Shown one piece after another: positions 18,701 to 38,283 of a stretch of DNA of 64,000 bases. Position 1 is the first letter of the stretch; the number at the start of each line of letters is the position of its first letter. The notes under the pieces are model-generated. The model saw only the letters and a program-made list of their open reading frames with translations. It was not told where the DNA came from and did no database searches. The position numbers and the translations under genes are program-made. Source of the stretch: Patescibacteria group bacterium (GTDB taxonomy: Bacteria > Patescibacteriota > Patescibacteriia > Magasanikbacterales > JBBTQS01). Location: NCBI GenBank assembly GCA_038065555.1, contig JBBTQS010000001.1:741-64740 (forward strand). Reading direction: 5' to 3'.

Positions 18701-21700
18701 TGCCCAGCAGGCGCTGGAGTTGGTGCTGATTCCTGCTGCTACGCACGTCCACGCGTACTCACAGAGACAGCATTACCTGCTTCTGGTTCGGCTGCAGTAT
18801 GTCGCAACGCGCTCATCACGATTGAGTTCAACGAGCAAATTGATCCTGCGACAGTGAACACGTCGACCGTTCGACTCTTTGTGCAGAGTGCGACAGCAGA
18901 CGCGTGTACAAAGAATGGCGGAACGGTTATTGCACAATCACTCATCAATCCAGATGATCCATGGTACCGACGTGCGTGGTTTACCATGGTCAATGAAGTA
19001 CGTGGATGGTTCGATGCAGCGCCTGCGTACGCAGCAGTGAATTGCGGATATTATTTCAACGCTGAGCTCGCAGACTTGCAGAACATTGGCAGTGGCAGCG
19101 TCGGTGTACGCTCCAAGCTCTTCATCACGCCAACTGAGCTGTTGGGTGAGAAGCAAGTGTATACTGTCGAAATCACACAAGCTGTTCGCAACATGATGGG
19201 TGTGCGTATCGCTGAGGCGTACACATGGAAGTTCACTACAGGCAAGACATTGTGCACACTTGCTGCTGTTGACGTAGAACCAGCAACGCACGTGTTCACA
19301 AGCACTGGTCCTTCGAGTAATGCAAATATGATTGCAACTGCATACGCGAAGCAGGGAAATGATTTCACGCCAATTGTTTCGACAAGCAAGTATGCATGGT
19401 CGTGGGCGTGGAAGGTGACTCATGCTGATCGCGCTGTGATCACTTCCCAGAACAACACGAAGGCAGTAGCAGCTCCTGGACCAAAGCGTGGTGAAACCAC
19501 GATTCGCGCAACTGCAACAGTAACAACAGACTTGATTAGTCCTGCGCCAACAACTGGCGGCTCGTTGCAGGGATTTGGTGCCCTGGTGAATGCAAATTGT
19601 GATGTCCCATGGCCAGATGCAACAACGAAGATTGGCAATAATCCAGTTTCGTTCCCATACGCAGATCGAGACATGCACTTCTCGCTGTGGTACTGCCGTG
19701 GCAATTTGCCAACGACAGATACTCCAGCTCCGAAGGTGTTGCCAGCATTCCAGCTCTATCGTCCAACAGAAAAGGTCACAGCAGGAACAGAACTCTTGTC
19801 CTCACTCTTGTTGCGCCATCCAAGTGCAGGGGACGCTATTGGGTTGCGCGTGTACAGCAACGTAGAAGGATTGTCTCCAATGGACTGGTACGCAAAGCAA
19901 GGATTCAGTGGCAAGCCATCAGCAACAACGCTTGCAGGATACGAAGCAATTCAAGATGGTACGACGTATTACATTGCATTCGTGAATGTGAGCAATCCTA
20001 CTGGCAGTTACGTATGGCCTGAGACGATACATCCGCGCAATCGCAATTCGAAGTACGTCAACATCTTGGCGATTTCGCACAATCAGGACGCAACTCCAGA
20101 GACAAAAGCAGTGTTCGCACAGCTCCTCGAGAACCTCAAGTTCTCAACTAATATCGAGGCGAAGTGGAATCAGGGTGTGTGTGCTGTGGTGGGCGCAAAT
20201 GGTGCCGTTGGTCAGACAACATTCGGTACTAATCCTGCACGCGAGATCTCGTGCTCCTCACGCCTCGACTGTGTGAACAACAAGGAAAAGATTGCAGTCC
20301 CTGCAGCAGTAGAATGTCTTGCATTCAACGAGCAGTTGAGCCGAGACGCTGTGCGTTGGTCTGATCTGCGTGAAATTCAAGGTGCCGTCACTGGATTCAA
20401 GGCGCAGTATGGATCCGCACCAACCCTTGGCCAAGGAACGTATGTTCCATCCATGGCGGTGAGTGCGTGGGATTCGTGGAACACGGTGTTTGGAAAGCAA
20501 ATTGGCGATTCTTCGCTTCCTCAGGATCCAATCAACGCGTTCGCTGCTGGGTGTGAAGGTGACGCTGCAACCTGTTGGAATGGCGCGACGTCCAAGTACA
20601 TGTGTACTGCAGGTTCGCATGTGTATTCCTACACAACATCGAAGAATGCAGCAGGGTTCAAGCTCGGTGTCGATTTCGAAACCATCAAGGATTCTTCGCA
20701 GCGTTGGAATAACGTTGTTGCAAGTGCGTACCAGGTGTACGGCAATTGCACGGGTGTTCCAATGGCAGCAGGCGGCATCTGTGGAGATGGAATTCTCAAT
20801 CTCACTGAGCAGTGTGAAGCGGGACAAATGATCGGAGCAGTGGGTGGTATTACAGATCCAAATGCGCAGACGTGTACGGTGTCTGACGCAAAGGGTAATA
20901 CATACCCAGGTGCGTATATCTACAGCTGTCCGAAGTCCTGTCAGTACTATTCTGCAGCAGAACTCAAGAGTAACAAGATTGCGTGTCAGCCACTGGGTAG
21001 CTGTGGTGATGGTGTGATGAACGGCAACGAAATGTGTGACGATGGATCACTCAACGGATCATACAACCACTGCGCGAGTGATTGCCGCTCCAAGATGAGT
21101 GCGGCAGGTCGTTGTGGTGATGGTGTTCTCCAAAAAGAGCAAGGTGAAATGTGTGATGTTACACGCTGTGAATACACGAATGTACAGTGCTCGACGACAG
21201 AAACGAGCAACTCGTGTCCAGTGGTGATGGCACATATGTCGAGTACTATTTATCCAGGGATGGTGTACTTGCGGTACGGCGCCAATGGCAAGGCACAGGG
21301 TGAAACGCTCAAATATTTCTCGAAGTCCACTGCGACAAAAGATTTCCCTGTCGGCACACAGTTGAAATGCCTAGGTGCACAGACAACATATGCACCGACT
21401 CAGGCCAAGTCTTGTAACTGGGACTGTCTCTCCTATGGACCGTACTGTGGAGATGGTGTGAAGAATGGAACGGAGAAGTGTGATGGAACACAAATGTCTG
21501 ATGAAGCGTGTACAACTGCACAAGGATTGCCTGGAACCGTTGCGTACACCTGTACCGCGTCATGCTCTGCGAGGAGCAAGACGTGCGTAGCGAAGCCACT
21601 TGCTGGTGGCGCATCGAGCGCTCCAGTGTGTGGTGATGGCGTGAGACAGGGGGATGAAGGTTGTGATAGTGGTACGAACAATGGTGATGGATGTACGGCG

Positions 21701-21910
21701 CAATACGGAGGTTCGTGTCAGTTCTGCTCCAAGCAGTGCAAGATCCAAACACAATCTGGTGGATCATGTGGTGATGGCAAGCGTCAGATCGCCGAGCAGT
21801 GTGACGGAACAGATTTGGGTAGCAAGACCTGTAAGGATTTTGTGAGCAGTTCGTCGAAGAAGCTCACGTGTAATACCAACTGCACGTACAATCAGAATGC
21901 ATGTAAGTAA
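12740..21910 (+). CDS. Giant (3056 aa) surface protein: T4SS pilin-like N-terminal domain, Gly/Ser linker, IPT/TIG-like domains, multiple Myxococcus-type Cys-rich repeats
   Basis: The N-terminal 120 aa are a near-identical paralog of the 10850 gene product (VLYGGFLWMTAAGNEDQVASAKKVLINAGIGLVIIMSSFAITQFVL). A GSGSSDGIGGSGGSGGSG linker follows. IPT/TIG-like modules are present (ITGVSPGNGGEGQWVTVQGKFFG..). At least 12 repeats of the form CG(N/D)G..E.CD(D/G)(GN)..SGDGCS..C occur at about aa 1715-1900 and 2690-3050. Confidence 0.9.
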   Translation: MLRSFFRQLAFLGIAATLVAATAVFTEPTAVYAQVDTELTNFQESTGLGNTDIRVTIGNVVRVVLGFLGIIAVCLVLYGGFLWMTAAGNEDQVASAKKVLINAGIGLVIIMSSFAITQFVLSNLQEATGTGTGSGSSDGIGGSGGSGGSGSGSGGLKSFVVRSISPRETLPNKNVTLHIVFSENVANTNLEKSITVRKNGETTLVPVTVNAQGSRVTVKATTPCAEARGSFCFDGDTQYTIEIAGGKDGVQSSSGKALLCGVGNECNARFKTGNAVDTQAPTVTITSPTGGALVAQAPATNIQALVGDDLGISLVEFMVDGTVVDSKAVVAMQSLPVTVSSNAWDASALALNSSHTITVRVYDVNDHNTLSSSVTVRIVPSYCFDGQQTPNTDEIGRDCSPKGGACGQCDGGCTDNTQCASGTCAVPAAGGDKQCLNLPTITGVSPGNGGEGQWVTVQGKFFGNSGTVSFLNPDGSAAKIVAPLAQCTGGSSAWTDRAIVLEVPKGLTPGTAYPILVETSASSDATNDDRGPKFDGVFMVKEQSGPTPGICSITPASGKAGSTVMIHGKNFPADQATMKLRFGGVEGTLAPRQQQTTFASGQVPNVAPGTYATDFVVGGVASNAVPFTVSGDGAKPAPSIISLSLDKGAVRQYITIKGSNFGEFQNLIKFIRLNDQLVPTDEVTYGDFSFPKQCATVGTWSDASVVVKVPQVVDGKYHIVVVRSDSDNDVSNNESNRVVFTVNRDPLTPGLCALVPDNGPTGLAVSLYGDGFGATPGAVLFQKDSIYNGVASRWSQSTVGAAVPSSATTGEVVVRSDAGTRSNPQIFTVQNCNQKPGVCGGNEQCCGNGACIPRTDASTGKALSCTSYNVPEASYTFSFYTGKGDFDPNNYPPAVVEECVGGKLPSPTPWIKHPGGDGACVNALLGVKFTIPLDQATLTYDRGRNSTVLLFACKDAACAEVEDAPVAIDPTTFNYSDLADSDGSKNSIQSYLSFAPKSPLTPRTTYMVVLTDKITGQMNGMSMVPNPAKCGGTAAASFGAYCYTFKVSDTGLSCTLGAVDVSPAKFNVGDPNMISESSKYALSPVPFWEVAEDGTKTKKFGPLEWSALGIAKNSKCILVNACGADSSWTWASQHTDVGVPSGVPSGAQCKRYMKVTGESAKTVSETGAVSVVPTEVTATENTSKLADKSLFTVNYGAPTVLEQCGGTIQSPSPWDKRQGGTNVCVNAIVNIVFSQRMDQSSFAGNPVEIRKCTGTGANPCATTSEPLSTVATFKTKDDQHDGLSVALVGNQFFDKATTYRVGVRSTLKGATGVQMEQRPGCNPGESYCYSFRTRDDDKACEVDKVQVAPDTQSTYALGLVRDKKGVAVPYEAEAVSSDSCVLLNANAYQWNWAAQAPYAAVYAVAEQKTYTTLTNSGPSQQMWAQLPTTGRAPAEIQVALAGSTKVANSTLAINLLPPTILSNEPSCTSACSNVQISATFSQEMDTASFGLGTATPSVAVLKCTNESCLFPTDAAGALTAEAFAAQIPLQLEPQSGVYDDLTTQTGTSYLMALAHETLLPNTYYRAVVRVGDKGVFTSDTKSTIALTSLNESRRYPAGMAAYYSWTFKTRPDGSVCTVANAELRPKETVVQASGLISEVAVFAKSAADVCSAGGQTLQASDYSWQWNIANTSVAQFLNGTAADTADATAGGACTARCVARGTVAAGTPVCGNSVKESGESCDDSNALSGDGCSNRCLVEPSVRIQQGGTCGNNKVESGELCDGQPGCNQGTCTWMGASAGLAVCGNGDIGAGEECDGGLYCTSSCLLKGSTPGAAVCGDGNLQPGEDAYCEEFWHANGPGATSSACTNTCVLRGGLTEENKQGGAFCGNGTVEPQTGEACDDGNALSGDGCSLKCLHEGAATTYAQPSVCGNGSAETGESPSCEIVGANATAGDGKIDATQFIRGLSGGAVSKNNRRETAITAAVAQTNAVAEGTYAIQCGYTADSQCPAGAGVGADSCCYARPRVLTETALPASGSAAVCRNALITIEFNEQIDPATVNTSTVRLFVQSATADACTKNGGTVIAQSLINPDDPWYRRAWFTMVNEVRGWFDAAPAYAAVNCGYYFNAELADLQNIGSGSVGVRSKLFITPTELLGEKQVYTVEITQAVRNMMGVRIAEAYTWKFTTGKTLCTLAAVDVEPATHVFTSTGPSSNANMIATAYAKQGNDFTPIVSTSKYAWSWAWKVTHADRAVITSQNNTKAVAAPGPKRGETTIRATATVTTDLISPAPTTGGSLQGFGALVNANCDVPWPDATTKIGNNPVSFPYADRDMHFSLWYCRGNLPTTDTPAPKVLPAFQLYRPTEKVTAGTELLSSLLLRHPSAGDAIGLRVYSNVEGLSPMDWYAKQGFSGKPSATTLAGYEAIQDGTTYYIAFVNVSNPTGSYVWPETIHPRNRNSKYVNILAISHNQDATPETKAVFAQLLENLKFSTNIEAKWNQGVCAVVGANGAVGQTTFGTNPAREISCSSRLDCVNNKEKIAVPAAVECLAFNEQLSRDAVRWSDLREIQGAVTGFKAQYGSAPTLGQGTYVPSMAVSAWDSWNTVFGKQIGDSSLPQDPINAFAAGCEGDAATCWNGATSKYMCTAGSHVYSYTTSKNAAGFKLGVDFETIKDSSQRWNNVVASAYQVYGNCTGVPMAAGGICGDGILNLTEQCEAGQMIGAVGGITDPNAQTCTVSDAKGNTYPGAYIYSCPKSCQYYSAAELKSNKIACQPLGSCGDGVMNGNEMCDDGSLNGSYNHCASDCRSKMSAAGRCGDGVLQKEQGEMCDVTRCEYTNVQCSTTETSNSCPVVMAHMSSTIYPGMVYLRYGANGKAQGETLKYFSKSTATKDFPVGTQLKCLGAQTTYAPTQAKSCNWDCLSYGPYCGDGVKNGTEKCDGTQMSDEACTTAQGLPGTVAYTCTASCSARSKTCVAKPLAGGASSAPVCGDGVRQGDEGCDSGTNNGDGCTAQYGGSCQFCSKQCKIQTQSGGSCGDGKRQIAEQCDGTDLGSKTCKDFVSSSSKKLTCNTNCTYNQNACK
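12836..13122 (+). repeat. Paralogous pilin-domain module, copy 2
   Basis: Direct comparison with 10946..11232; both copies are in the same orientation. Confidence 0.7.
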
Positions 21911-21926: not shown

Positions 21927-21951
21927 AGTGCCATCACGTTTAACGCGTCGT

Positions 21952-22677
21952 ATGTTCGATACAACACCTAATGCGCAGCAGCCTGGCACTGTGCCACAGC
22001 CTGAGAATGCGCCAGCGACTTTTGAGAGTGCGGAGTTCGGTGCTACTGCGATTCAGGCAGGCAAGCTCAAGCCTATCAGTGAAAAATCTGAAAAGGATAT
22101 GGGTGTACCAGGGGATGATGTTGGGGCATACGAATTTCAGGCGCCGCATGCGCAGAACAAATGGTTCTTGATCACGTTTGCCATTCTCGGAGTTGCAGCA
22201 CTCGGAGGACTTTCGTGGTGGGCATACAATGCGTATACCGCATCGATGGACACCGCAGTTCCAGCTGCAGCAACTGATGTGGTTCCTGCCGAAGAGGCGG
22301 TGGTTGAGGAGGAGGTAAGTCCTTATGATGATGTGATTGCTCCTACTACCACGACAACACCAGTACTCACAAGTCCTGTAGCCACGAGTACTCCTTCGCA
22401 AGAACCAAGTGAGGTAATTGCGGCGACAGATATTGACAATGATGGTCTCTCAGATGTAGACGAAGTACGCGATGGATCAGATCCACGCGACGCGGACTCA
22501 GATGATGACGGACTTACAGATGCACAAGAAGTACTTCAGTACGGTACGAGCCCAACGAATCCAGATTCAGACGGGGATACGTACTCTGACGGTACAGAAG
22601 TGAAGAACGGATACAATCCTAAGGGTAATGGAATGCTCCCTGCTGCTGCAACGAGCACTGCTCCGTTTGCACAATAG
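21952..22677 (+). CDS. Single-pass membrane protein with Asp-rich Ca-binding-like repeats
   Basis: Cytoplasmic N-terminus, one TM helix (WFLITFAILGVAALGGLSWWAY), a Thr/Pro-rich linker, then DIDNDGLSDVDE, DSDDDGLTDAQE and DSDGDTYSDGTE repeats of thrombospondin-type-3-like DxDxDG form. Confidence 0.7.
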   Translation: MFDTTPNAQQPGTVPQPENAPATFESAEFGATAIQAGKLKPISEKSEKDMGVPGDDVGAYEFQAPHAQNKWFLITFAILGVAALGGLSWWAYNAYTASMDTAVPAAATDVVPAEEAVVEEEVSPYDDVIAPTTTTTPVLTSPVATSTPSQEPSEVIAATDIDNDGLSDVDEVRDGSDPRDADSDDDGLTDAQEVLQYGTSPTNPDSDGDTYSDGTEVKNGYNPKGNGMLPAAATSTAPFAQ

Positions 22678-29375: not shown

Positions 29376-30497
29376 ATGTTCCAAAGGCAAAATCGATTTG
29401 AACAGCAGCGTCGTGCAGAGATCCCAATGGGACCACGTCCTGTAGAACGCAGGGCTACACCTGAAGTCGCAAAACCCACCTTTCCAGAAAAATGTGAATT
29501 GTTGATTTCTCGTTACGAGAAGCAACGGCCAACTATTGAGGAGATCGCACATCATGCGCCAAGAGGGCTCTACACCCCTGCGGAAATTGAACAGCACCTC
29601 GCATATACGCAAAGATTGGAGAGTAAATTTCGTGGAGTGCCACAGACACCAGAGGATGTATCTATTTTGAAGCGATCACAGTTTGCTGAAGCATTTTTGG
29701 CAACGCGTATTGAGGATGAAGGTTGGTTTGGGGAAGAGTGTGTGGTTTTTGTAACTACGAGACATGATGATGTGGGTAACGGTGTTGATTTTGTTCTGGA
29801 GTGGCAGTCGGGAGATGAGGAGGATGTACAGCACTACCAGTTGGCGGTGGATGTTACCACCGCGACTTCCAGATCTATACTCGACGGGAAATCTAGCGCC
29901 ATAGCAGATTCTATTCGCGGCAAAGCAGGTGGACCTCGAGGGCCTAAGTATCTCTCAGAGGTCGCATATTATCGTTCACCACACACGGATGAGGTGCAAC
30001 GTCTCACCTTCTTACCCAAAGTGACAGTAGCATTATCACCAGACCAAGTGGATCGTGCGATTCACTTGGTTGGTGCGAAGCAGTCTATGTCACAGGCAGA
30101 GCAAAAGGAAATGGTGTTGCCCTTGATTGCTGAGACGCTAGCGCAATTACAAGAACAAGTAGTGATGGCAATACGAGAGGTCTGTAATAAGTACACAGCG
30201 TTTTTGCCTCTCGTTGGAGAAAAAGTAGCTACACCATTCTTACAAGAGTTAGCTGTGATAGGAGAGCAATTGCGTCACGCGGCAGCGACAGGAAAGGCTG
30301 AGGATCTTTTCGCAGTGTATGATGCATTTACGGAATTGACAGATGGTCCGTTGCGCGAGATACCAGTTCCAGAGGCGTACAAGGATTCTATTTTTGTGGT
30401 TCATGCACTTGTGCCTGTAACTGCTCGCGTGCATCAGGCATTCTTGGAACAGAAAAAGCGCTTCGCTCAACCAAGGTCGTTAACCAAGGGTAAGTAA
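29376..30497 (+). CDS. Hypothetical protein (373 aa), co-directional with htrA
   Basis: Long ORF starting 3 nt after the htrA stop. No recognisable motif; acidic and predicted soluble. Confidence 0.65.
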   Translation: MFQRQNRFEQQRRAEIPMGPRPVERRATPEVAKPTFPEKCELLISRYEKQRPTIEEIAHHAPRGLYTPAEIEQHLAYTQRLESKFRGVPQTPEDVSILKRSQFAEAFLATRIEDEGWFGEECVVFVTTRHDDVGNGVDFVLEWQSGDEEDVQHYQLAVDVTTATSRSILDGKSSAIADSIRGKAGGPRGPKYLSEVAYYRSPHTDEVQRLTFLPKVTVALSPDQVDRAIHLVGAKQSMSQAEQKEMVLPLIAETLAQLQEQVVMAIREVCNKYTAFLPLVGEKVATPFLQELAVIGEQLRHAAATGKAEDLFAVYDAFTELTDGPLREIPVPEAYKDSIFVVHALVPVTARVHQAFLEQKKRFAQPRSLTKGK

Positions 30498-30518
30498 AGC
30501 GCTTTTGTCTCGGTGTTG

Positions 30519-30532
30519 CTCACCTAGGTGAG
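30519..30532. promoter_or_regulatory. Perfect 14-bp palindrome CTCACCTAGGTGAG
   Basis: Seen directly. Lies in the 200-nt gap between the hypothetical gene and pyk. No T-tract follows, so it is more likely a dimeric-protein site than a terminator. Confidence 0.2.
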
Positions 30533-30699
30533 TCCGAGAGCCTTGAGGTTGAGATCTCGCAGGCGTGAGCTGATGCTGCGCCGCCGGCTCGAACGGGGAA
30601 ATCGCGAAGTACGACGTGAACGATGCATGAGAACCTCCTCAGATCGTTGGGAGCACACCATAGCACATATTCAGCGTCTTGTCAATCACCTCATTTTCT

Positions 30700-32082: not shown

Positions 32083-32134
32083 ATTGGTTATCCACAGTGC
32101 GTGAACTAGTCTTTCGGTTTTGTTTCGGGTATAC

Positions 32135-32156
32135 TACGGATATAATCAAATCCGTA
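32135..32156 (+). promoter_or_regulatory. Candidate LexA operator/promoter: inverted repeat TACGGA-N10-TCCGTA enclosing a perfect TATAAT
   Basis: tACGGAtataatcaaaTCCGTatg. The 3' arm abuts the lexA ATG. A TATAAT hexamer sits at 32141-32146. Confidence 0.35.
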
Positions 32157-32764
32157 TGCTTACCCCAAAGCAAAAAGCCATACTCGAGTACATCGTGAAC
32201 GCGAGTTTGCAGACTGGTTACGCGCCATCGCTGCCGGAGATTGCGAAGGAATTCGGACTCAAGTCTGTCGCAACGGTCCATGAGCATCTGACGACACTTG
32301 AGGCCAAGGGGTATATTCGTCGCAACCCGAATCAGCCGCGCGGTATTGAGCTCACGCGCCAATCTGCACGCACTGGCCGGACTATTTTGTTGCCGCTCTC
32401 GGGGTTCATTACGGCAGGACAACCTATTGAGGCACTCGAGACGCATGAGACATTCGCTGTCCCTGCGCAATTTGTTGTCGACAGCTTCAACTCATATGTA
32501 TTGCGCGTGCGTGGAGAGTCTATGATCGAGGAAGGGATCTTCGATGGAGATTATGTTGTAGTAGAGCGTAATCCATCGCCGAGTAATGGGGATGTTGTTG
32601 TTGCACTGCTCGACAATGCGTACGCAACACTCAAGAAGTTCTATCGCGAGAAGACGCGCATCAGATTGCAGCCAGCCAATCGCACAATGAAGCCGATTTA
32701 TGCGCGGCATGTGAACATTCAGGGGATTGTTCGCGCAGTAATTCGACGATTCGGCACTGCATGA
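32156..32764 (+). CDS. lexA: LexA repressor
   Basis: N-terminal winged-HTH (LTPKQKAILEYI..). S24 peptidase core with the Ser/Lys dyad (VRGESM..ATLKKF). Confidence 0.9.
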   Translation: MLTPKQKAILEYIVNASLQTGYAPSLPEIAKEFGLKSVATVHEHLTTLEAKGYIRRNPNQPRGIELTRQSARTGRTILLPLSGFITAGQPIEALETHETFAVPAQFVVDSFNSYVLRVRGESMIEEGIFDGDYVVVERNPSPSNGDVVVALLDNAYATLKKFYREKTRIRLQPANRTMKPIYARHVNIQGIVRAVIRRFGTA

Positions 32765-32900
32765 AATTCTTTTGAACGAAAAATACCGTGCGATACATGG
32801 CCGCCCCGGTATTTTTCTGTCCCAAGTGAATTGTGACATTCGAAAGTATATAAGAGAGCGCGCGGTCCATCAAGAAAAATTTGTGGATAACTCACATCGT

Positions 32901-34097
32901 ATGATCATGCACATCGACATGAATTCTTTTTTTGCGTCTGTTGAACAACAATTGGATCCGTCGTTGCGCGGCAAACCAGTGGTTGTACTTGCGTATGTTG
33001 CACCACGTGGTTGCGTACTCGCATCTTCAATCGAAGCAAAGCGTCTCTATGGTATCAAGACAGGCATGACCTATGCCGAAGCACTCGAGCGCTGTCCGCA
33101 CGTCATCGCGCGTGCAAGTAATGCTGCGAAGTATCGTGAGTACTCCCAGAAGTTCATTGCGCTTTGTCGCACGTACTCGCCAGCGATTGAACAGTACAGT
33201 ATTGATGAGGCGTTCCTCGATATTGATTGGGCTGCACGAAATCTCCAGGACGCAGTTGGACTTGCGAAGGAGTTCAAGCAACGATTGCATGACGAGGTGG
33301 GTGAGTGGATTCGTTGCAGTATTGGTATTGCGCCCACGCGATTCCTCAGCAAGCTCGCAGGAGACTCCATGAAGCCTGATGGACTCACCGTACTCACGAA
33401 GGATGATTTGCCTGCGTGGTATGTAGGACGGGAAGTGCAAAGTGCATGGGGGATCGGTGGAGCGAGCGCGCGCAAGTTGCGCGAATCGGGGATCAACACA
33501 CTGGATCAGTTGTATGCCGCAGATCCAGTGCAACTCGTGCGCCTCTTTGGACGCACCGGATATGGATGGTGGGCGAAGTTGCGCGGTGTGGAGTTCGAAG
33601 AGCTCGACACAGATCGCGTCGCAGATCAGAAATCTATCAGCGCGCAATACTCATTACCATTTCGCACCCGTGACGCGCGCGCACTGCGTCCTGTGCTCAT
33701 GAAGATGTGCGAGCGCGTAGGACGACGGTTGCGTCAGCAGAACAAGATTGCAGGACGAGTCTTCGTCTTTTGGCGCAACTGGGATGGGAGCGGGGATGCG
33801 GCACATGCAGATAGTGTTCCGGCGGTAGAGGATTCATTCGCGCTTTTTACTCTGGCCTCCAGGATGCTCGGCGCTACCAGGCCGTTGTCTCCATTTCGTC
33901 TCATTGGTATTGGGGTTTCACGTCTTGCACCACGGGGGACACAAGAGAGCTTGTTCGAGCCAGTGCGGGTGGAGTCTATTATTCCTGCGTTAGATAGGCT
34001 CAATGACCGTTATGGGGAGTACACCGTGTACCGCGGAGCCATGGCTGGCGTGCGGGAATTGGTCCCGGAGACTGCCGGATTTCGCAAAACCGCCTAA
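32901..34097 (+). CDS. dinB: DNA polymerase IV (Y-family)
   Basis: MIMHIDMNSFFASVEQ, YSIDEAFLDI and IGIAPTRFLSKLA. Sits downstream of lexA. Confidence 0.9.
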   Translation: MIMHIDMNSFFASVEQQLDPSLRGKPVVVLAYVAPRGCVLASSIEAKRLYGIKTGMTYAEALERCPHVIARASNAAKYREYSQKFIALCRTYSPAIEQYSIDEAFLDIDWAARNLQDAVGLAKEFKQRLHDEVGEWIRCSIGIAPTRFLSKLAGDSMKPDGLTVLTKDDLPAWYVGREVQSAWGIGGASARKLRESGINTLDQLYAADPVQLVRLFGRTGYGWWAKLRGVEFEELDTDRVADQKSISAQYSLPFRTRDARALRPVLMKMCERVGRRLRQQNKIAGRVFVFWRNWDGSGDAAHADSVPAVEDSFALFTLASRMLGATRPLSPFRLIGIGVSRLAPRGTQESLFEPVRVESIIPALDRLNDRYGEYTVYRGAMAGVRELVPETAGFRKTA

Positions 34098-34128
34098 AAA
34101 AGCCTTATTTTGTGCCTTCTCACAGCTC

Positions 34129-34157
34129 TTGACAGGATTTGAGATATCTGATATGGT
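34129..34157 (+). promoter_or_regulatory. Sigma70-like promoter candidate (TTGACA-N17-TATGGT)
   Basis: Seen directly. Lies upstream of the GC-rich lipoprotein gene and leaves a 5' UTR of about 250 nt. Confidence 0.3.
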
Positions 34158-34405
34158 GCTCACTCGACGTCACGACATTGTCGCGACGCCGTGTTGAACA
34201 TTGCAAATTCTGCTCAACATCATTTGATAGGCACGCGACACATGTGTTCCACCACATGCATATGTGGCGCGCGCCTATCGATTTGGGGATTTCCTCATCG
34301 AACCGGCAATGGCGCGCGTCTGGTCCCGCAGTGGGGCCAGTGCACGACTGGAATGTGGATTACCGCGAACGCAATGAGGTGTTCGCGCTTGAGGAGAGTA
34401 TCCCG

Positions 34406-35353
34406 ATGAAGAGCAAGATGATGAAGAACGGCGCCATGTTGGCGTTCCTGTGCCTGTTCGCCGTCGCCTGCGGCAGCGATCCCTCGGCCACCGGCGCGAT
34501 CGGCTCCCCGCCGACCGCGACCAACGACGAGTGCCCCTCCGGGGAGTGCAACAGCGGCACCAACCTGGCCACCAACGAGATCGCGCTGCAAGGCGTCGAT
34601 TGCGCGGGTGAGACGCCGGAAGAGGCCGACGCGATGTGCGCCGAGGCTCTGGACGCGGCCATGCTGAGTGGTCAAGTCCAAGGCATCTGCGTGGACGAAG
34701 GTTCAGCGCGCTGCGGCGAGGGGTCCTGTTGGATCACCGTCGAGCTCGGCTGCTTCGTCGAAGAGTGCAAGGTGCCCGAGGAGTGCGACGACGGCAACCC
34801 CTGCACGGCGGACTTCTGTCTGTCGAGCAACACGTGCTACAACCCGGCGGCGGTCAATGACGGCATGTCATGCGACGACGGCGACGCGTGTACGGAAGGC
34901 GACGCGTGTGAGGCTGGCTCCTGTTCGTGGAGCACGCCGAAGAACTGTGCGGACGGCAACGTCTGCGACGGTATGGAGACCTGTTCGTCGCCCAGCGGAG
35001 CGTGCATCGAAGGCACTCCGCCGGTCGTCGACGACGGCAACACCTGCACGACGGACTCGTGCGATCCGGTGACGGGCGTCACGAACACGCCGCTCGCGGA
35101 CGGGACCGGCTGCATGACCGACGAGCACGGCTGCACGACGCAGCAGTGCTGGGACGGTGCGTGCAAGGTGACGTCCAAGGACGACGCCGCCTGCGCCGAC
35201 GACAACACCTGCACGCTCGACTACTGCCACTCGGTCGACGGGTGCAAGTGGACGAGCCTCGCCGGTTCGGTCTGCGGGGAGAACATGACGTGCATGGAGG
35301 CGGCCGAAGAGGGAGCCGCTCCCATTTGCACCGAAGACCTCCCCCCGGCCTGA
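34406..35353 (+). CDS. Cys-rich lipoprotein, compositionally foreign (about 68% GC)
   Basis: GAGGAG Shine-Dalgarno 8 nt upstream. Lipoprotein signal MKSKMMKNGAMLAFLCLFAVAC|GSD. Repeats of the form CDDGNPCT.D.C, CDDGDACTEGDAC, DDGNTCTTDSCD and ADDNTCTLDYC. GC3-biased codons, unlike flanking genes. Confidence 0.8.
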   Translation: MKSKMMKNGAMLAFLCLFAVACGSDPSATGAIGSPPTATNDECPSGECNSGTNLATNEIALQGVDCAGETPEEADAMCAEALDAAMLSGQVQGICVDEGSARCGEGSCWITVELGCFVEECKVPEECDDGNPCTADFCLSSNTCYNPAAVNDGMSCDDGDACTEGDACEAGSCSWSTPKNCADGNVCDGMETCSSPSGACIEGTPPVVDDGNTCTTDSCDPVTGVTNTPLADGTGCMTDEHGCTTQQCWDGACKVTSKDDAACADDNTCTLDYCHSVDGCKWTSLAGSVCGENMTCMEAAEEGAAPICTEDLPPA

Positions 35354-35424
35354 AGCCCTGCAACGAGTGAGTGATCCGGCGTGACAACGCCGGGCACTCA
35401 CCCGAAGTAGCGGTGGTCGATTAA

Positions 35425-35483
35425 CCCCCGAAGTGTATATCGTGTCAAAACTGACACGAAGACACTTTGGGGGTTCTTTTTTT
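35425..35483 (+). terminator. Rho-independent terminator (long hairpin + T7)
   Basis: CCCCCGAAGTGT..(inner CGTGTCA/TGACACG)..ACACTTTGGGGG followed by TTCTTTTTTT. Confidence 0.65.
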
Positions 35484-35657
35484 ATCCACATTTTGCAACT
35501 ATAAATAAAAGGTTTTTGCTCTGGACAGGGAAGGGGCTTTGCGTTATAGTAGGCCTCGTTAGCGATGTGTGACGCAGTGGGACCTGTCTGGCTTCGCCAG
35601 ACCGATCCTTCTCGCTCAGGAATGCTTGGCCTTCGGCCTGCATTCTACTCGCTCGTC

Positions 35658-35731
35658 GGACCGGTAGTTCAGCTGGTTAGAATGCCGCCCTGTCACGGCG
35701 GAGGTCGCGGGTTCGAGTCCCGTCCGGTCCG
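35658..35731 (+). tRNA. tRNA-Asp (anticodon GTC)
   Basis: Manual cloverleaf: acceptor GGACCGG/CCGGTCC; D-arm GTTC-AGCTGGTTA-GAAT; anticodon stem CCGCC/GGCGG with loop CTGTCAC; T-arm GCGGG-TTCGAGT-CCCGT; discriminator G. No encoded CCA. Confidence 0.9.
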
Positions 35732-35738
35732 CACATGT

Positions 35739-35762
35739 GTCCACCCGAGAGGGTGGACTTTT
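35739..35762 (+). terminator. Rho-independent terminator after tRNA-Asp
   Basis: GTCCACCC-gaga-GGGTGGAC followed by TTTT. Confidence 0.6.
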
Positions 35763-35766
35763 GCTT

Positions 35767-36261
35767 TGTTGATTGCTCGGACGAGACTACGATCGAAGGC
35801 AACGTGGAAATGGATGAGGCTTTTATTGGCGGACGTTCAGATAGAGCACACAAGGTTACATCCAAAACCATTGTAATTGCCGCTCTAGAACGTGAGGGGG
35901 ATTTGCGAGCGCAGACGAGCCAGATACCACTGCTTCATCTATCGGTTAATTTTTGCGGGACGATATAGAAAAGGAAGAAACTCGTTTGTTCACGGACAAG
36001 AGTAATAGTTATGGACGCACAGGTAAGGAGTACGATCGCTTCTCCGTCAATCACTCACGAGGCGAGTACGTTCGTGGTGATGTGTATGTAAACAATGTGG
36101 AGAGCTTTTGGTCTCATTTCAAGCGTAGCCTTACAGGAACGCACAAGACTATTTCGAAGAAGTATTTGCAGACGTATTTGGACGGGTTTGTTTTCCATTA
36201 TAACAACCGACACAGCGACAGACTGCGCTTTGAGACTTTGCTCGGTGCTTTGGTGAGATAA
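35767..36261 (+). pseudogene. Transposase pseudogene (IS1595 family), frameshift near 35953-35968
   Basis: Same evidence as the mobile-element entry. The two ORF pieces 35735..35968 and 35953..36261 are in different frames. Confidence 0.7.
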
Positions 36262-36296
36262 CGCGACGGAGGGTGGAAAGAAATGAGGTTTTAGTA

Positions 36297-36328
36297 TTGT
36301 TGTTGGCCATATAGAGGCATGGTATAGT
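36297..36328 (+). promoter_or_regulatory. Promoter candidate with extended -10 (TTGTTG..TGgTATAGT) for the small-gene operon
   Basis: Seen directly. An AAGGA Shine-Dalgarno follows, 7 nt before ATG 36352. Confidence 0.4.
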
Positions 36329-36351
36329 AACGATGAAGTAAGGACAATTTT

Positions 36352-36579
36352 ATGGCCATAGAACTAACGTTTCCTAAAGATGATGAGATGGACGCCCACA
36401 TTGACAATGGGCATCTTGTTGCATTAAGAAAAATAGCGACTGATTACAACCTCAAAAGTGAAAAAGAAGCACTGAGTTTCTTGCTTGCTATTATATCACA
36501 AGCAAATGGCTTACCTATCGAAATAAATGGTAGCAAATATTTGCCTTCTGATTCGCTTAAAAAGGAACAGCCAAAATAG
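36352..36579 (+). CDS. Hypothetical small protein (75 aa), AT-rich island gene 1
   Basis: Good SD/ATG context. Acidic and soluble. Its stop is 1 nt before the next ATG. Confidence 0.5.
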   Translation: MAIELTFPKDDEMDAHIDNGHLVALRKIATDYNLKSEKEALSFLLAIISQANGLPIEINGSKYLPSDSLKKEQPK

Positions 36580-36580
36580 T

Positions 36581-36829
36581 ATGGCGAAAGGAGATTTTGA
36601 TGCGCCCGGTGAGCTAAAAAGAATCGAGGACGCAAATGAAGGTGTTAATTTTGATAAGAAGGTTGGAGAATCGGTACGGAGATCTACAGACGTACAAACG
36701 CAAATTAAGGCCGTTGTTTGGTGTTTGCTAAAAGAAAAGATAATCTGGATTGTTCTTGGTGCATCAGCTTTTGCTGTGCTAGAAATTTTGAAAGAATTGG
36801 GTACAGCTTTAATAAAAAAAATACCGTAA
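36581..36829 (+). CDS. Hypothetical small tail-anchored membrane protein (82 aa), AT-rich island gene 2
   Basis: Translationally coupled to gene 1. C-terminal TM helix IIWIVLGASAFAVLEIL. Confidence 0.5.
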   Translation: MAKGDFDAPGELKRIEDANEGVNFDKKVGESVRRSTDVQTQIKAVVWCLLKEKIIWIVLGASAFAVLEILKELGTALIKKIP

Positions 36830-36854
36830 AATTTTTATTCTCAATTGTGTCCCT

Positions 36855-37055
36855 ATGTACTGGAAAGTTTTGGCAACCACCGCACTCCTTTTTGCAGTCC
36901 TTTCTGCCTGCTTTTCTGCATACATTGCGGTAAAAAAATACGATTTAAGCGTACTCGATGCTGCGACAATAAGATGCTCTCAAGCATTCAACGGTGCGAA
37001 TTTAGAGTTCTGTGTAAAAGTCATGGTGGAACAACGTATCTTGATGAATCGGTAG
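36855..37055 (+). CDS. Hypothetical small membrane/lipoprotein-like protein (66 aa), AT-rich island gene 3
   Basis: N-terminal hydrophobic segment ending LSAC. No clear SD. Confidence 0.35.
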   Translation: MYWKVLATTALLFAVLSACFSAYIAVKKYDLSVLDAATIRCSQAFNGANLEFCVKVMVEQRILMNR

Positions 37056-37096
37056 CAAAGGTGACTCACACTTGTGTTTGGGTGTTGACAAACATC

Positions 37097-37126
37097 TTGC
37101 AACCCAGAGTCGACATGGTGTACAAT
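37097..37126 (+). promoter_or_regulatory. Sigma70-like promoter candidate TTGCAA-N18-TACAAT
   Basis: Seen directly. The predicted TSS is near 37134. Confidence 0.35.
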
Positions 37127-37133
37127 CAATACA

Positions 37134-37316
37134 GATCAGTGTGAATTCAATTCTCTGTTTCTAGCCAGAGAGAGCGTCATTCAATCCAATGCACACGGAT
37201 TGACCATCAAGAGTGCTACCTTGCCGAAACGAAAGTTTCGTCAGGTGCTAGAACCACTGCTGACGGACTGTGAAAGCAGACGTAGGCAGGGTAGACGCTC
37301 TTGGTGGTTTTTATTA
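37134..37316 (+). ncRNA. Candidate structured non-coding RNA (identity unknown)
   Basis: No credible ORF. A promoter-like element lies upstream. Internal hairpins include CGAAAC-GAAA-GTTTCG (GNRA tetraloop), TTCTCTG..CAGAGAG and CGTCAG..CTGACG. A long-range closing stem AGAGCGTC(37172-79)/GACGCTCT(37291-98) is followed by UGGUGGUUUUUAUUAU. The segment GUGAAAGCAGACGUAGGCAG loosely resembles the SRP-RNA helix-8 3' strand GGAAGCAGCCAAGGCAG. Confidence 0.3.
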
Positions 37317-37381
37317 TCTGCTTAGCAAATCAGTTCTCTGCACCAGCTGGTCAATGCTAAGTACCAGATAACGAGACACGT

Positions 37382-37546
37382 ATGACAAAGATTTGTCGTC
37401 CGTGGATCACCTTGCGCAACGGGAAGCGGCTTTACGCATCCCAGCGAGGCAAGCGTGTGTTCTGCTTCTTTGTTGAGGACAAAATCCTCGATAAAAAAGA
37501 AGAACCAGTGGTTACCGCCACTGATCCCGCCATTTAGCGATGGTAC
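37382..37546 (+). CDS. Possible small ORF (54 aa; MTKICRPWITLRNGKRLYASQRGKRVFCFFVEDKILDKKEEPVVTATDPAI)
   Basis: ATG-started, basic N-terminus, ends immediately before an intrinsic terminator. Below the 60-aa track cutoff, so found by manual translation. No SD. Confidence 0.25.
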
Positions 37547-37548
37547 TG

Positions 37549-37578
37549 GAACCCCGAGCAATCGGGGTTTTCAGTTTT
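37549..37578 (+). terminator. Rho-independent terminator
   Basis: CCCCGA-gcaa-TCGGGG followed by TTTTCAGTTTTTA. Confidence 0.6.
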
Positions 37579-37764
37579 TATCACCTCTAGGGCGATATGT
37601 CAATATCATACCATACTCACTTGTGGATAGATTGTTATGTCTTGAGGGGATATGTCCTTTCTGACTGGCAGGTTGTTGAAAAAAACACCACCCCGACCAC
37701 CATCTCCCGCGTGAAGCAGAAGTTGGTGATCGGGGTGAGTTGTTTTTCGTTTGGCTTTCTCGAG

Positions 37765-38283
37765 CTACTCCTCGAGCGCACGCGGGACGTCGATGCCCCA
37801 CTGCATCCCGTACCGCCCCAGATCGCCGGTGAGCTGGGTCCACAATTCGTACTCGCCCGCGGGGAACTCGACGCCGCAGTGCTTGAACAGCTCGCGCCAG
37901 GGGGCGAAGTGTCTCTCGTTTCGCTCGTTGGAGAGCTTGATGAGGGACTTCCTCTCACGCACCTCCAACTCGGCCCGTGACAGGGTCTCGAGATTGATCT
38001 CGGGCGGGGTCGTGAACACGTGGTCCTCGCCCACGAGCTGGATCCACCACTGGTCGTGGGAACCGAGCTGAGCCTTCGTCCGGGTGGTCACGACGTAGAC
38101 CGTGTATCCCTCCTGGAGGGCGTACTCCAGCGCCCCGCGGGAGTACATGTTGCTCTCCTTCACGCCGCGGCTCGCCTGCTCCTCCGTCGGCCGGAATACG
38201 GACGCGGGCTCGGAGGGGTGTTGTGGGGTGAGATCGCTCTGAATGTCGCTCGTGGAAAGAACAACGACAGTCTGCTTTGACAT
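37765..38283 (-). CDS. Hypothetical protein (172 aa), GC-rich (about 62%) orphan gene
   Basis: ATG at 38283 with GGAGCGAAGG upstream. Compositionally unlike its neighbours. No recognisable motif. Confidence 0.6.
   Translation of the reverse strand: MSKQTVVVLSTSDIQSDLTPQHPSEPASVFRPTEEQASRGVKESNMYSRGALEYALQEGYTVYVVTTRTKAQLGSHDQWWIQLVGEDHVFTTPPEINLETLSRAELEVRERKSLIKLSNERNERHFAPWRELFKHCGVEFPAGEYELWTQLTGDLGRYGMQWGIDVPRALEE

Follow-up and report, generated by a model that had tools for sequence, protein, structure and literature searches.

Between dinB and a tRNA-Asp gene in the genome of a Patescibacteria group bacterium lies a gene for a cysteine-rich lipoprotein with a base composition foreign to its surroundings. 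Atypical GC content and codon usage beside a tRNA gene are routinely taken as recent transfer, with amelioration used as a clock, and the first-pass annotation had explained this locus as a recent acquisition from a high-GC donor or, alternatively, as an assembly chimera. The question is whether the gene is a newcomer, an artifact, or a resident with an unusual composition. It was analyzed within a window, namely the whole 64,000-nt stretch of DNA, in which the following features were recognized.

32120–32764: LexA, directly before DinB
32772–34097, + strand: DinB (Y-family polymerase; IMS/IMS_C), the conserved left flank, outside the island
34129–34157, + strand: putative sigma-70-like promoter TTGACA-N17-TATGGT with an extended -10 TG (10/12 matches)
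34158–34405, + strand: 5' leader/intergenic region, GC 0.53, host-typical
34391–34396, + strand: SD GAGGAG, within the 5' leader
34406–35353, + strand: CDS of the Cys-rich lipoprotein, 315 aa, 36 Cys, GC 0.67, GC3 0.88
34406–34471, + strand: signal peptide and lipobox MKSKMMKNGAMLAFLCLFAVA-C22, by inspection of the sequence, context FAVAC
34472–34783, + strand: linker (residues 23–54, pLDDT <50) and clade-specific Cys-containing N-domain (residues ~55–126), AF2 model
34784–35305, + strand: 5–6 Dicty_CTDC-type modules (residues ~127–300), predicted stacked beta-hairpins
35101–35480, + strand: allele-variable 3' cassette (codons 233–315 and the terminator region), two discrete classes, coding part ~68% identical
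35355–35487, + strand: two stem-loops past the stop codon (35355–35414 and 35423–35475), the second followed by a U-run, an intrinsic terminator
35658–35732, + strand: tRNA-Asp(GTC), the conserved right flank; variable DNA starts only 3' of it
35953–36261: IS1595 transposase fragment, on the 3' side of tRNA-Asp

The promoter-like site, the SD, the lipobox, the strong terminator, dinB, and tRNA-Asp were each found as the first-pass annotation had described them. The start of the gene needed correction by one base; the ATG is at 34406.

The lipoprotein gene is a true compositional outlier, as had been claimed. Its GC content was 0.669 (0.56, 0.57, and 0.88 at the first, second, and third codon positions, respectively), and its GC3 had a z value of 6.1 relative to the 38 other genes of the window (mean 0.547, sd 0.055, maximum 0.671). 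In sliding 300-nt windows, the GC content rose from 0.53 to 0.64–0.68 across 34350–35400 and then returned to 0.52–0.55. The GC-rich block coincided exactly with the CDS, the intergenic GC being 0.53 in the 308 nt upstream and 0.52 in the 304 nt downstream. When the amino acid sequence of the lipoprotein was re-coded with the background codon usage in 5000 simulations, GC3 was 0.490 ± 0.026 (maximum 0.584) and GC was 0.537. Thus, the same protein written in host codons stays far below the observed GC3, and the excess is synonymous rather than protein-level. The codons GCC (0.42 vs. 0.09 in the background), GTC (0.75 vs. 0.17), and CTG (0.54 vs. 0.13) were strongly preferred, and GCA, CCA, and ACA, with background values of 0.34–0.47, were never used. 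The gene is also atypical beyond the window: a GC3 of about 0.8 was reached by only 3 of approximately 53 genes sampled from the species, with the lipoprotein gene the highest among them. An abundance of similarly GC-rich genes, which the first-pass annotation had named as grounds for discarding its claim, was thus not seen in this sample.

A compositional jump alone could be produced by a GC-rich fragment of another organism stitched into a CPR contig. However, the gene was reproduced from different samples and by different assemblers in three same-species copies, L001 (ENA ERZ27247837, a 280-kb contig), L002 (Logan SRR22388172), and L003 (Logan SRR25259646). L002 spans positions 32797–35686 of the window at 97% identity and crosses both junctions, as does L001, and L003 covers most of the lipoprotein gene. 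The order DinB–lipoprotein gene–(tRNA-Asp) was kept in L001 and L002, with flanks 93–97% identical. Moreover, the same architecture was present in GTDB genomes of three other species, one of them a 931-kb chromosome, and the limits of the block fall at a start codon and at a terminator rather than at arbitrary breakpoints. With three independent assemblies carrying the gene and two of them spanning both junctions, an assembly chimera is excluded with near certainty.

The three further Patescibacteria species (L004, L005, and L006) also bear on the age of the gene. Relative to the window, their DinB proteins were 62–64% and their LexA proteins 71–75% identical, and the flanks were synonymously saturated (pS 0.72–0.83). 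The order PK–LexA–DinB–Cys-rich lipoprotein was found in all three, with tRNA-Asp downstream in L005 and L006; the contig of L004 ends before the position of the tRNA gene. The syntenic gene had a GC3 of 0.73, 0.91, and 0.92 in these species, compared with 0.34, 0.40, and 0.44 in the flanks. In every lineage, the intergenic GC was 0.42–0.54, the GC-rich block stopped at the CDS limits, the first 100 codons were as GC3-rich as the rest, and the gene had a host-type promoter and SD. The genes of the clade aligned over their full length from residue 1, but the similarity between lineages was low (32–37%); their orthology is therefore argued from synteny, architecture, and a chain of N-domain similarities that links the lineages transitively. 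In shuffling tests, this chain connected the window with L006 (z = 4.2), L006 with L005 (z = 5.7), and L005 with L004 (z = 4.1), whereas the N-domains of the window and L004, and of the window and L005, showed no significant similarity when taken pairwise.

These data contradict the view that the strain acquired the gene recently from a high-GC donor by integration next to tRNA-Asp. The extreme GC3, the donor-like codons, and the tRNA gene and IS1595 remnant close by would agree with such an event, but the gene occupies the same site, and is GC3-rich, in another strain of the species and in three further species with saturated flanks. Nor was its presence variable among close relatives, as would be expected of an island: it was found in L001 and L002 as well as in L004, L005, and L006. 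The intergenic regions to either side have the GC content of the host, and no close donor was found (≤41% identity among the best 120 matches). The neighborhood of the tRNA gene and the IS element, which had been cited in favor of transfer, gave it no support. The lipoprotein gene lies 5' of tRNA-Asp, whereas the IS1595 remnant, a strain-specific AT-rich insert, and the integrases of the relatives L005 and L006 all lie 3' of it. Collinearity with L001 was lost only at ~35800, and the true variable islet comprises 35.8–37.66 kb, on the other side of tRNA-Asp from the lipoprotein gene. On the side of the gene itself, no integrase, flanking repeats, or mobile-element genes were detected. Recent acquisition is thus very improbable.

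The regulatory surroundings of the gene were considered in addition to its position. Two promoter-like sites were found, against 0.6 expected in shuffled sequences, and TTGACA-type sites were seen by eye in the equivalent intergenic region of L004 and L006. The site at 34129–34157 would imply a leader of ~250 nt, within which the stretch 34200–34299 was 100% identical to L001 and L002. No Rfam family was assigned to this leader when the window was searched at the gathering threshold and 33900–35800 at E ≤ 1, the only hit being the tRNA, and the 5' intergenic regions of the lineages showed no alignment beyond the promoter and SD and no further common motif. Past the stop codon, the region 35355–35487 had a minimum free energy of -73.6 kcal/mol compared with -37.8 ± 4.0 for shuffled sequences (z = -8.9; 0 of 200 shuffles as stable).

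From its sequence and structural model, the product is predicted to be a membrane-anchored, disulfide-rich surface protein that consists of a lipoprotein signal, a flexible linker, an N-domain, and a stalk of CTDC repeats. By inspection, a lipobox closes the signal peptide. The residue at -3 is Ala, where Leu, Val, or Ile is canonical; in the alignment, the Cys22 column is invariant in the orthologs of the four lineages, whose lipoboxes read ATGC, ITGC, and LVGC. Neither lgt nor lspA was detected in a family scan of the 64 kb and a further ~30 kb of the genome. The repeats matched the Pfam family Dicty_CTDC (PF00526) in two stretches at 43 bits (cut-off 27, E = 3.8e-11). Their modules of ~24–27 residues follow the pattern C-D-D-G-N-x-C-T-x-D-x-C and related ones, with invariant C, D, G, N, and T columns, and the DNA repeat families D1–D5 had 65–84% identity and a spacing of 66–243 nt. 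The AF2 model of the repeat region consisted of beta-hairpins with a pLDDT of 76–96. The top PDB match in Foldseek was the Cys-rich heavy chain of the Entamoeba Gal/GalNAc lectin (E = 1.8e-4, with a TM of only 0.13), and the nearest solved folds, all weak matches, were Cys-rich extracellular adhesin or disintegrin modules. In NCBIfam, no family was matched at E ≤ 0.01, including the models for Myxococcal Cys-rich repeats and MYXO-CTERM. External homologs covered the repeats only, and the N-terminal 125 residues had no homolog outside the clade; GC3 of the linker and N-domain segment was as high as that of the repeats. Literature searches on PF00526/Dicty_CTDC in bacteria and on cysteine-rich lipoproteins of Patescibacteria gave nothing relevant.

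Within the species, the gene evolves much faster than its surroundings. Between the window and L001, dS was 0.10–0.18 and dN ≤0.015 in the flanks, compared with dN 0.136, dS 0.30, and dN/dS 0.45 in the lipoprotein gene, and dN was more than 20-fold above that of the neighbors. All Cys residues were nevertheless invariant among the same-species alleles. The 3' cassette fell into two classes, with an identity of 0.97 between the window and L002, 0.94 between L001 and L003, and 0.66–0.69 between classes; its dS was 0.66–0.76 and its dN 0.39–0.44. In this region, 95 informative sites were counted within 320 nt, all of which separated the window and L002 from L001 and L003, and 26 informative sites were counted in the preceding 800 nt. 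The boundaries of the 3' alleles were sharp and were accompanied by short clusters of incompatible sites. Neither a silent cassette nor a duplicate of any segment of the gene was found at the protein or DNA level in the 64-kb window, and programmed hypervariation of the cassette or DGR type was therefore rejected. Local error-prone synthesis through the adjacent lexA–dinB, considered on account of the conserved adjacency, was rejected as well: no evidence for it was found, and the discrete allele classes, as opposed to a mutational continuum, favor recombination. Another GC3-rich gene, orf172, was not hypervariable; thus, high GC3 and hypervariability are not strictly coupled.

The overall pattern suggests that the protein is exposed and subject to diversifying selection, as an adhesin or a contact protein would be. 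Patescibacteria are thought to depend on cell–cell contact with hosts, so the lipoprotein is a reasonable candidate for a determinant of host or phage interaction. Most likely, it would serve to attach to host cells or phages or to be recognized by them.

The named homologs belonged mostly to Myxococcota, “Deltaproteobacteria,” Planctomycetota, and Binatia, and nearly all carried PF00526. The first-pass annotation had expected the best hits in Myxococcota/Deltaproteobacteria in the case of horizontal transfer. Outside the species, no homolog exceeded 41% identity among the best 120 matches from 5.8 billion proteins. No plasmid or phage match was found for the gene, and an origin from such elements was rejected. 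A metagenome scan with the ortholog alignment retrieved 80 CTDC loci with no new syntenic orthologs among them, and a profile search with alignment A2, in which long multi-repeat proteins dominated, identified no further orthologs of the clade. Used as a control set, the 80 loci had a family-wide mean GC3 excess of only +0.09, a value that includes crude ORF calling in the flanks of high-GC loci. The CTDC lipoproteins of L109 and L167, in loci of ~50% GC, had background GC3 with no excess; therefore, high GC3 is not intrinsic to the family. Tandem CTDC lipoproteins were also observed in Magasanikbacteria, and these genes, together with that of L004, look partly ameliorated.

At 4-fold sites, the lipoprotein gene had A 0.03, T 0.06, G 0.43, and C 0.48, and the high-GC organism L087, which carries the same repeat family, had A 0.00–0.02, T 0.05, G 0.37–0.41, and C 0.52–0.58. 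The two codon profiles are indistinguishable. The IF3, L35, and L20 genes of the host, in turn, had G 0.14 and A+T 0.41 at these sites. The codon profile thus resembles those of high-GC organisms and not those of the ribosomal-protein genes of the host, so an ultimately foreign, ancient origin is plausible. An effect restricted to C-ending codons (tRNA wobble), at which the raw A3/T3/G3/C3 values had hinted, disappeared when codon families were considered separately, with G-ending codons enriched too, and was rejected.

Translational selection, by which extreme expression of a major surface protein would enrich GC-ending codons as the host optimum, could explain why the effect is limited to the CDS, and the strong promoter-like site, the SD, and the terminator would fit it. 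IF3, L35, and L20 do favor C-ending codons (4-fold C 0.45 vs. 0.24; NNY-C 0.70 vs. 0.51), and the RSCU of the gene correlated with theirs at r = 0.60 and with the background at r = 0.40. However, in this small reference sample of 199 4-fold codons, G fell (0.14 vs. 0.25), whereas it rose to 0.43 in the lipoprotein gene, and A/T-ending codons made up 41% compared with 9% here. Translational selection would therefore require a bias far above that of ribosomal-protein genes, with a different set of codons, and is improbable.

The dinB/tRNA-Asp slot might, on the other hand, have been refilled repeatedly, wholly or in segments, by high-GC donors, for instance a host or a co-resident Myxococcota-like organism, so that each copy is young and not yet ameliorated. 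In searches by single-HSP BLASTP, which together with N-domain shuffling replaced a phmmer ranking made uninformative by summed repeat scores, the repeat regions matched external high-GC proteins as well as or better than one another; for example, L005 was 52% identical to the external protein P0015 over 198 aa. Such xenologous replacement would also account for the codon profile of a genuine high-GC organism, for the mosaic structure of alleles within the species, in which the 3' cassette is swapped, for a family centered in high-GC lineages, and for the partial amelioration in L004 and Magasanikbacteria, as if the copies were of differing ages. However, the clade-only N-terminal 125 residues are homologous along the chain window–L006–L005–L004 and are equally GC3-rich. 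In addition, the GC-rich block ends at the CDS limits, with a host-type promoter and SD in every lineage, mobile-element genes, integrases, and repeats are missing from the gene's side of the tRNA, and the matches listed from 5.8e9 proteins include no donor above 41% identity. Repeated replacement is accordingly regarded as unlikely.

The reading that we prefer, with a probability of roughly 0.55, is that of a resident, anciently acquired, vertically inherited, and hypervariable surface lipoprotein gene. The CTDC-repeat module probably entered an ancestor of this clade of CPR bacteria from a high-GC lineage. Since then, as synteny shows, the gene has kept its place between dinB and tRNA-Asp, along with a promoter, SD, and terminator of its own, all of host type. 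Its alleles are exchanged by recombination, as is most visible in the swapped C-terminal cassette.

A GC3 of ~0.9 that has survived while the flanks became saturated, that does not extend beyond the CDS, and that includes the clade-specific N-domain calls for a gene-specific force. We tentatively suggest that a locus-specific force may hold the third positions at ~90% GC, where other genes have 34–55%, beyond synonymous saturation in at least four CPR species; it may perhaps extend to other CPR classes, e.g., to the tandem CTDC lipoproteins of Magasanikbacteria. Such a force could be strong GC-biased repair of heteroduplexes or unrecognized selection on the coding sequence. Of these, we favor GC-biased heteroduplex repair at a recombining, polymorphic locus, similar to GC-biased gene conversion (gBGC), although with low confidence. 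As hints in this direction, polarized third-position singletons implied an equilibrium GC3 of 0.76 in the gene and 0.58 in dinB (P ≈ 0.06), and S>W changes were under-represented relative to S>S changes (P ≈ 0.08), values obtained by parsimony polarization of four sequences and not significant. Against gBGC, its effect would be expected to run past both ends of the CDS, but the intergenic DNA to either side has an ordinary GC content. We know of no bacterial case of a GC3 gap of 0.3–0.5; the reported effects of gBGC in bacteria are differences between gene classes.

Comparison with known systems shows both shared and distinct features. The lipoprotein resembles the Dicty_CTDC (PF00526) proteins of Myxococcota, “Deltaproteobacteria,” Planctomycetota, and Dictyostelium in its repeat, in the spacing of C, D, G, N, and T, and in its secreted or surface context, and many bacterial members, e.g., those of L109, L167, and L084, also start with a lipoprotein-type signal. 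However, typical members have 450–1500 aa, whereas the window protein has 315 aa with 5–6 modules. Unlike the others, it has a clade-specific N-domain, carries no MYXO-CTERM or other sorting tag, and is encoded with a codon usage alien to its own genome (~0.9 Mb, 53% GC).

Hypervariable surface antigens and adhesins, such as mosaic outer-surface lipoproteins and pilin alleles, are kept by recombination and diversifying selection. The lipoprotein gene shares with them a dN raised more than 20-fold over its neighbors, a preserved Cys scaffold, sharp allele cassettes, and a lipoprotein anchor. Unlike these systems, it has no silent cassettes or second copies in the 64-kb window, and no reverse transcriptase or template repeat. 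To our knowledge, such systems have not been described in combination with an extreme and persistent GC3 excess. Recombining bacterial genes have been reported to have higher GC3, mainly through non-optimal GC-ending codons (Lassalle et al., 2015; PMC4450053). The present gene is similar in that it recombines and has a raised GC3 with largely non-preferred host codons; however, its excess of +0.3 to +0.5 GC3 occurs at a single locus and stops at the CDS limits, in contrast to differences between gene classes, and the evidence from substitution directions at this locus is only suggestive.

Like tRNA-associated islands of horizontal transfer, the locus has atypical GC and codons, adjoins a tRNA gene, and has an IS remnant nearby. 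Unlike them, the gene is located on the 5' side of the tRNA, is without integrase or flanking repeats, is conserved across species, and is atypical in its CDS alone. The same signature persists here at a conserved locus in several species with saturated neighbors, where the usual inference would widely mis-date the transfer. If the copies were repeatedly replaced with no special force, the locus would be a neat but ordinary recombination hot slot. If the maintaining force is real, no single gene of bacteria known to us would be a more extreme case of this kind, and the locus would be a compact test system for GC-biased conversion or selection, with a ~1-kb gene, several lineages, and public read sets; the foreign-looking composition would then be something that a resident gene actively keeps and not a clock of recent transfer.

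In 300-nt sliding windows, the GC content rises from about 0.53 to 0.64–0.68 across 34350–35400 and then drops again. The GC-rich block coincides exactly with the coding sequence of a Cys-rich lipoprotein; the intergenic regions on its two sides (308 and 304 nt) have GC contents of only 0.53 and 0.52. The coding sequence has a GC content of 0.669 (GC1/GC2/GC3 = 0.56/0.57/0.88), whereas the mean GC3 of the thirty-eight other genes in the window is 0.547 (sd 0.055, maximum 0.671; z=6.1). When its amino acid sequence was recoded in 5000 draws from the background codon usage of the window, GC3 was 0.490±0.026 and GC 0.537; thus, the excess lies in synonymous codon choice and does not follow from the protein being rich in Cys, Gly, and Ala. 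The GC-rich, GC3-biased island described in the first-pass annotation is real, and the promoter-like site, Shine-Dalgarno sequence (GAGGAG), lipobox, terminator, dinB, tRNA-Asp, and IS remnant it listed were all found, the last as an IS1595 transposase fragment. The protein matched the Pfam family Dicty_CTDC (CTDC) with 43 bits (threshold 27). The main features of the locus are as follows:

Upstream of the lipoprotein gene: DinB
34129–34157: promoter-like site, TTGACA-N17-TATGGT
34406–35353 (+): lipoprotein gene, ATG at 34406, nine bases past GAGGAG
Residue 22 of the lipoprotein: lipobox Cys, with signal peptide
Past the stop codon: two very stable hairpins, U-run after the second (z=-8.9)
35658–35732: tRNA-Asp(GTC)

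Within the 5' leader of the gene, 100 nt (34200–34299) were 100% identical across the window and two contigs of the same species, L001 and L002, and the adjoining 100-nt bins differed by 2–10%. This stretch had no Rfam match and may represent a regulatory element, or chance. Just upstream of lexA, the inverted repeat TACGGAT-N8-ATCCGTA (32135–32156) overlaps a TATAAT-like hexamer and is a candidate LexA operator of the lineage; reading the lipoprotein leader by eye, we noticed no such repeat.

The closest database proteins to the lipoprotein (96%, 81%, and 79% identity) were all encoded on independent assemblies. The Logan contig L002 (SRR22388172) aligned with positions 32797–35686 (97% identity), an interval that includes both junctions. 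The 280-kb ENA contig L001 carried the order YbeY-FtsA-FtsZ-NrdR-HtrA-PK-LexA-DinB-lipoprotein-tRNA-Asp with flanks 93–97% identical to those of the window, and a short Logan contig (L003) contained most of the lipoprotein gene. The suggestion that the island reflects an assembly chimera is thus refuted by two contigs carrying the gene and its junctions independently, and such an artifact is extremely improbable. A 373-aa ORF (29376–30497, +) with no Pfam match and a low GC3 of 0.42 is an insertion relative to L001, where the sequence separating the HtrA-like protease from pyruvate kinase runs straight from window position 29378 to 30699.

The genuine strain-variable islet is located 3' of tRNA-Asp, at 35733–37660. 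A remnant of an IS1595 transposase gene, with a frameshift, occupies 35735–36261, and an AT-rich segment (36300–37100, GC 0.39) carries small ORFs lacking annotation. The window and L001 are collinear up to about 35800 and again from 37659; the 35.8–37.66 kb segment is absent from L001, which has other DNA with an RNA_pol_A_CTD-like gene at this position, plus 3.9 kb absent from the window. In L005 and L006, which represent two other species, integrase genes immediately follow tRNA-Asp. Since the lipoprotein gene lies 5' of the tRNA, and the IS1595 remnant, the strain-specific segment, and the integrases all lie 3', the adjacency to a tRNA and an IS, previously cited in support of horizontal gene transfer (HGT), loses its force.

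When GTDB was scanned with DinB as the anchor, taking a single genome for each species, three relatives, L004, L005 (a 931-kb chromosome), and L006, had DinB 62–64% identical over a full-length alignment; the next-best matches (DinB about 40%) had neither a Cys-rich lipoprotein gene nor tRNA-Asp in the retrieved flank. In all three, LexA and DinB precede a Cys-rich CTDC lipoprotein of 391–472 aa, and tRNA-Asp(GTC) lies downstream in L005 and L006, while the L004 contig stops before that point. The synonymous sites of LexA and DinB are saturated among the four lineages (pS 0.72–0.83). The GC3 of the lipoprotein gene in L004, L005, and L006 is 0.73, 0.91, and 0.92, compared with 0.34, 0.40, and 0.44 in the flanks; in each lineage, GC3 is as high in the first 100 codons as in the remainder, and the intergenic DNA on either side has a GC content of 0.42–0.54.

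BLASTP alignments began at residue 1 for the pairs window–L006, L006–L005, and L005–L004, and the lipobox Cys and about 30 other Cys/Asp/Gly/Asn/Thr columns are invariant across the four lineages. The mature N-domains alone, with signal peptide and repeats excluded, formed a similarity chain with z=4.2, 5.7, and 4.1, and 0–2 of 500 shuffles were equally good for each link. On this evidence, the four syntenic genes appear to be related over their whole length. Outside the clade, alignments were confined to the repeat region, no homologue among the 120 best matches drawn from 5.8 billion proteins exceeded 41% identity, and no plasmid or phage match was found. A recent transfer into the window strain, as proposed in the first-pass annotation, is contradicted by a locus shared among relatives with saturated flanks and lacking any close outside homologue; we regard it as hardly credible. 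The closest species-level relatives (GTDB records L004–L006 and L008–L010) were deposited as “uncultured Gammaproteobacteria bacterium,” a label that looks wrong; the window's own proteins are labelled Patescibacteria at NCBI, and the 931-kb chromosome is complete.

The codon profile was compared with those of other CTDC genes and of the host IF3, L35, and L20 genes, taken from L169, which lies on the L001 contig.

Codon-family fractions (fourfold A/T/G/C; NNY-C; NNR-G)
Window lipoprotein gene: 0.03/0.06/0.43/0.48; 0.88; 0.73
L005 lipoprotein gene: 0.01/0.05/0.42/0.52; 0.86; 0.96
L006 lipoprotein gene: 0.01/0.09/0.34/0.56; 0.91; 0.97
CTDC gene of a high-GC organism (L087): 0.00/0.05/0.37/0.58; 0.85; 0.93
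L087 neighbouring gene: 0.02/0.05/0.41/0.52; 0.85; 0.96
Host IF3/L35/L20 (same species): 0.18/0.23/0.14/0.45; 0.70; 0.67
Window background: 0.28/0.23/0.25/0.24; 0.51; 0.59

The bias in L005 and L006 exceeds that of the window gene, and the L087 values are practically equal to theirs. In the host genes, C-ending codons are increased, G-ending codons are decreased, and 41% of the fourfold codons still end in A/T. Translational selection could thus explain part of the C-ending preference, but it leaves the overall pattern unaccounted for and is an improbable source of the high GC3. The CTDC family does not need high GC3 as such, because members in two other contexts of about 50% GC (L109 and L167) have background GC3. 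An excess of this kind is also present elsewhere in the Patescibacteria (CPR), in another lineage and with other surroundings: two tandem CTDC lipoproteins of Candidatus Magasanikbacteria (L084:3572–6392) have GC3 values of 0.75 and 0.67, and the surrounding housekeeping genes 0.33–0.40. The named homologues are mostly from Myxococcota, “Deltaproteobacteria,” Planctomycetota, and Binatia. These data fit an ultimate foreign origin from a high-GC, CTDC-rich lineage; the interpretation in the first-pass annotation is partly supported, in that the foreign-type composition stands, as does a probable foreign origin, but as an ancient event.

In the comparison of the window with L001, dS is 0.10–0.18, dN 0–0.015, and dN/dS ≤0.09 for nine flanking genes, whereas the lipoprotein gene has dN 0.136, dS 0.30, and dN/dS 0.45. 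In its last 70 codons, dS is 0.66–0.76 and dN 0.39–0.44; the first 70 contain seven non-synonymous changes and one synonymous change, and all cysteines are invariant. At the 3' end, the four available sequences split into two discrete classes of allele: the window with L002, and L001 with L003. The coding part is 94–97% identical within and 66–69% identical between classes. The block has boundaries near 35100 and 35480, and 95 of its 95 informative sites back one split. Farther upstream, incompatible sites are grouped in short clusters at 34505–34511 and 34999–35014. A conserved putative disulfide scaffold, fast-changing residues at the presumed surface, and swapped allele segments are as expected for an exposed protein under diversifying selection. 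A cassette or DGR mechanism is unsupported, because no portion of the gene is duplicated elsewhere in the 64-kb window. We favour, with a probability of roughly 0.55, a resident, anciently acquired, hypervariable lipoprotein.

In a rough, unfitted two-state decay calculation with a between-lineage flank dS of 2.3 or more, no more than about one fifth of the starting GC3 excess would survive, and the predicted GC3 is about 0.55–0.6 versus the observed 0.73–0.92. It is therefore unlikely that the bias has been passively retained from one ancient transfer. One of the two remaining options is that a gene-specific force maintains GC3, which is favoured by an anomaly as strong in the clade-specific N-terminal part as in the repeats and by the demonstrable recombination of the gene. 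Polarised third-position singletons gave an equilibrium GC3 of 0.76 for the lipoprotein versus 0.58 for dinB (P≈0.06), and S>W changes were rarer than expected relative to S>S (P≈0.08); this signal, suggestive only, points the same way. Recombining bacterial genes have higher GC3, mainly via non-optimal GC-ending codons (Lassalle et al., 2015; PMC4450053). The precise end of the effect at the CDS boundaries counts against GC-biased gene conversion (gBGC) specifically, as does its magnitude, for which we know of no bacterial case. The other option, recurrent replacement from high-GC donors, would match the donor-identical codon profile and the repeat regions, which are no less similar to external proteins than to one another; however, given the N-domain similarity chain through the clade, the host-type flanks, and the lack of any close donor, it is rather doubtful.

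A GC3 survey of about 53 same-species genes (the window and the part of L169 past its right end) revealed just three outliers, the others ranging from 0.40 to 0.73; the sampled genome does not, therefore, hold many genes of similar GC.

34406–35353 (+): lipoprotein gene, GC3 0.88
37765–38283 (-): orf172, GC3 0.88
63033–63995 (-): ORFan lipoprotein, GC3 0.80

The product of orf172 has neither a Pfam match nor a signal peptide, and with 95% identity in L001 the gene is not hypervariable. Its L004 homologue, located between PK and LexA, has a GC3 of 0.59 versus 0.31–0.39 in that genome; persistent GC3 elevation is thus not confined to one gene of the clade, one more reason to suspect that it is being maintained and does not date a transfer. 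The lipoprotein-like ORF at 63033–63995 contains LLVAILWSSLVGC and has no Pfam match. A search of 5.8 billion proteins yielded just three homologues (identities of 96%, 80%, and, over 16% of the length, 72%), which all seem to belong to this species group; in the strain with the 80% allele, the flanks are about 90–91% identical at the DNA level. Very large surface proteins (2259, 625, and 3056 aa) and, beside them, a TSP3-repeat protein form a cluster at 1250–8029, 10850–12727, 12740–21910, and 21928–22677. T4SS-pilin-like N-termini and Big_5 domains occur in the 625- and 3056-aa proteins, the latter also having TIG, and the 2259-aa protein has fn3. The ordinary GC3 of these large proteins (0.40–0.53) indicates that GC3 richness is not general to the surface proteins of the genome. 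What merits follow-up with population data is the persistent, CDS-limited compositional anomaly of the hypervariable lipoprotein gene.

In an AlphaFold2 model (36 sequences, mean pLDDT 71), the N-terminal 54 residues (signal peptide plus linker) have low confidence and are followed by a small strand-helix N-domain; residues ~127–290 form a run of beta-hairpin modules (pLDDT 76–96). We propose a stalk that would be anchored by lipid and stabilised by disulfides, with contacts made by the C-terminal part, which is distal and the most variable. A Foldseek search against the PDB gave a weak match to the Entamoeba Gal/GalNAc lectin (Cys-rich heavy chain; best E 1.8e-4, with a TM of only 0.13, a low value that an elongated flexible repeat would be expected to give), followed by non-significant matches to ADAM17 and disintegrins. 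The lipoprotein is a further representative of an established repeat family, found in an unusual host.
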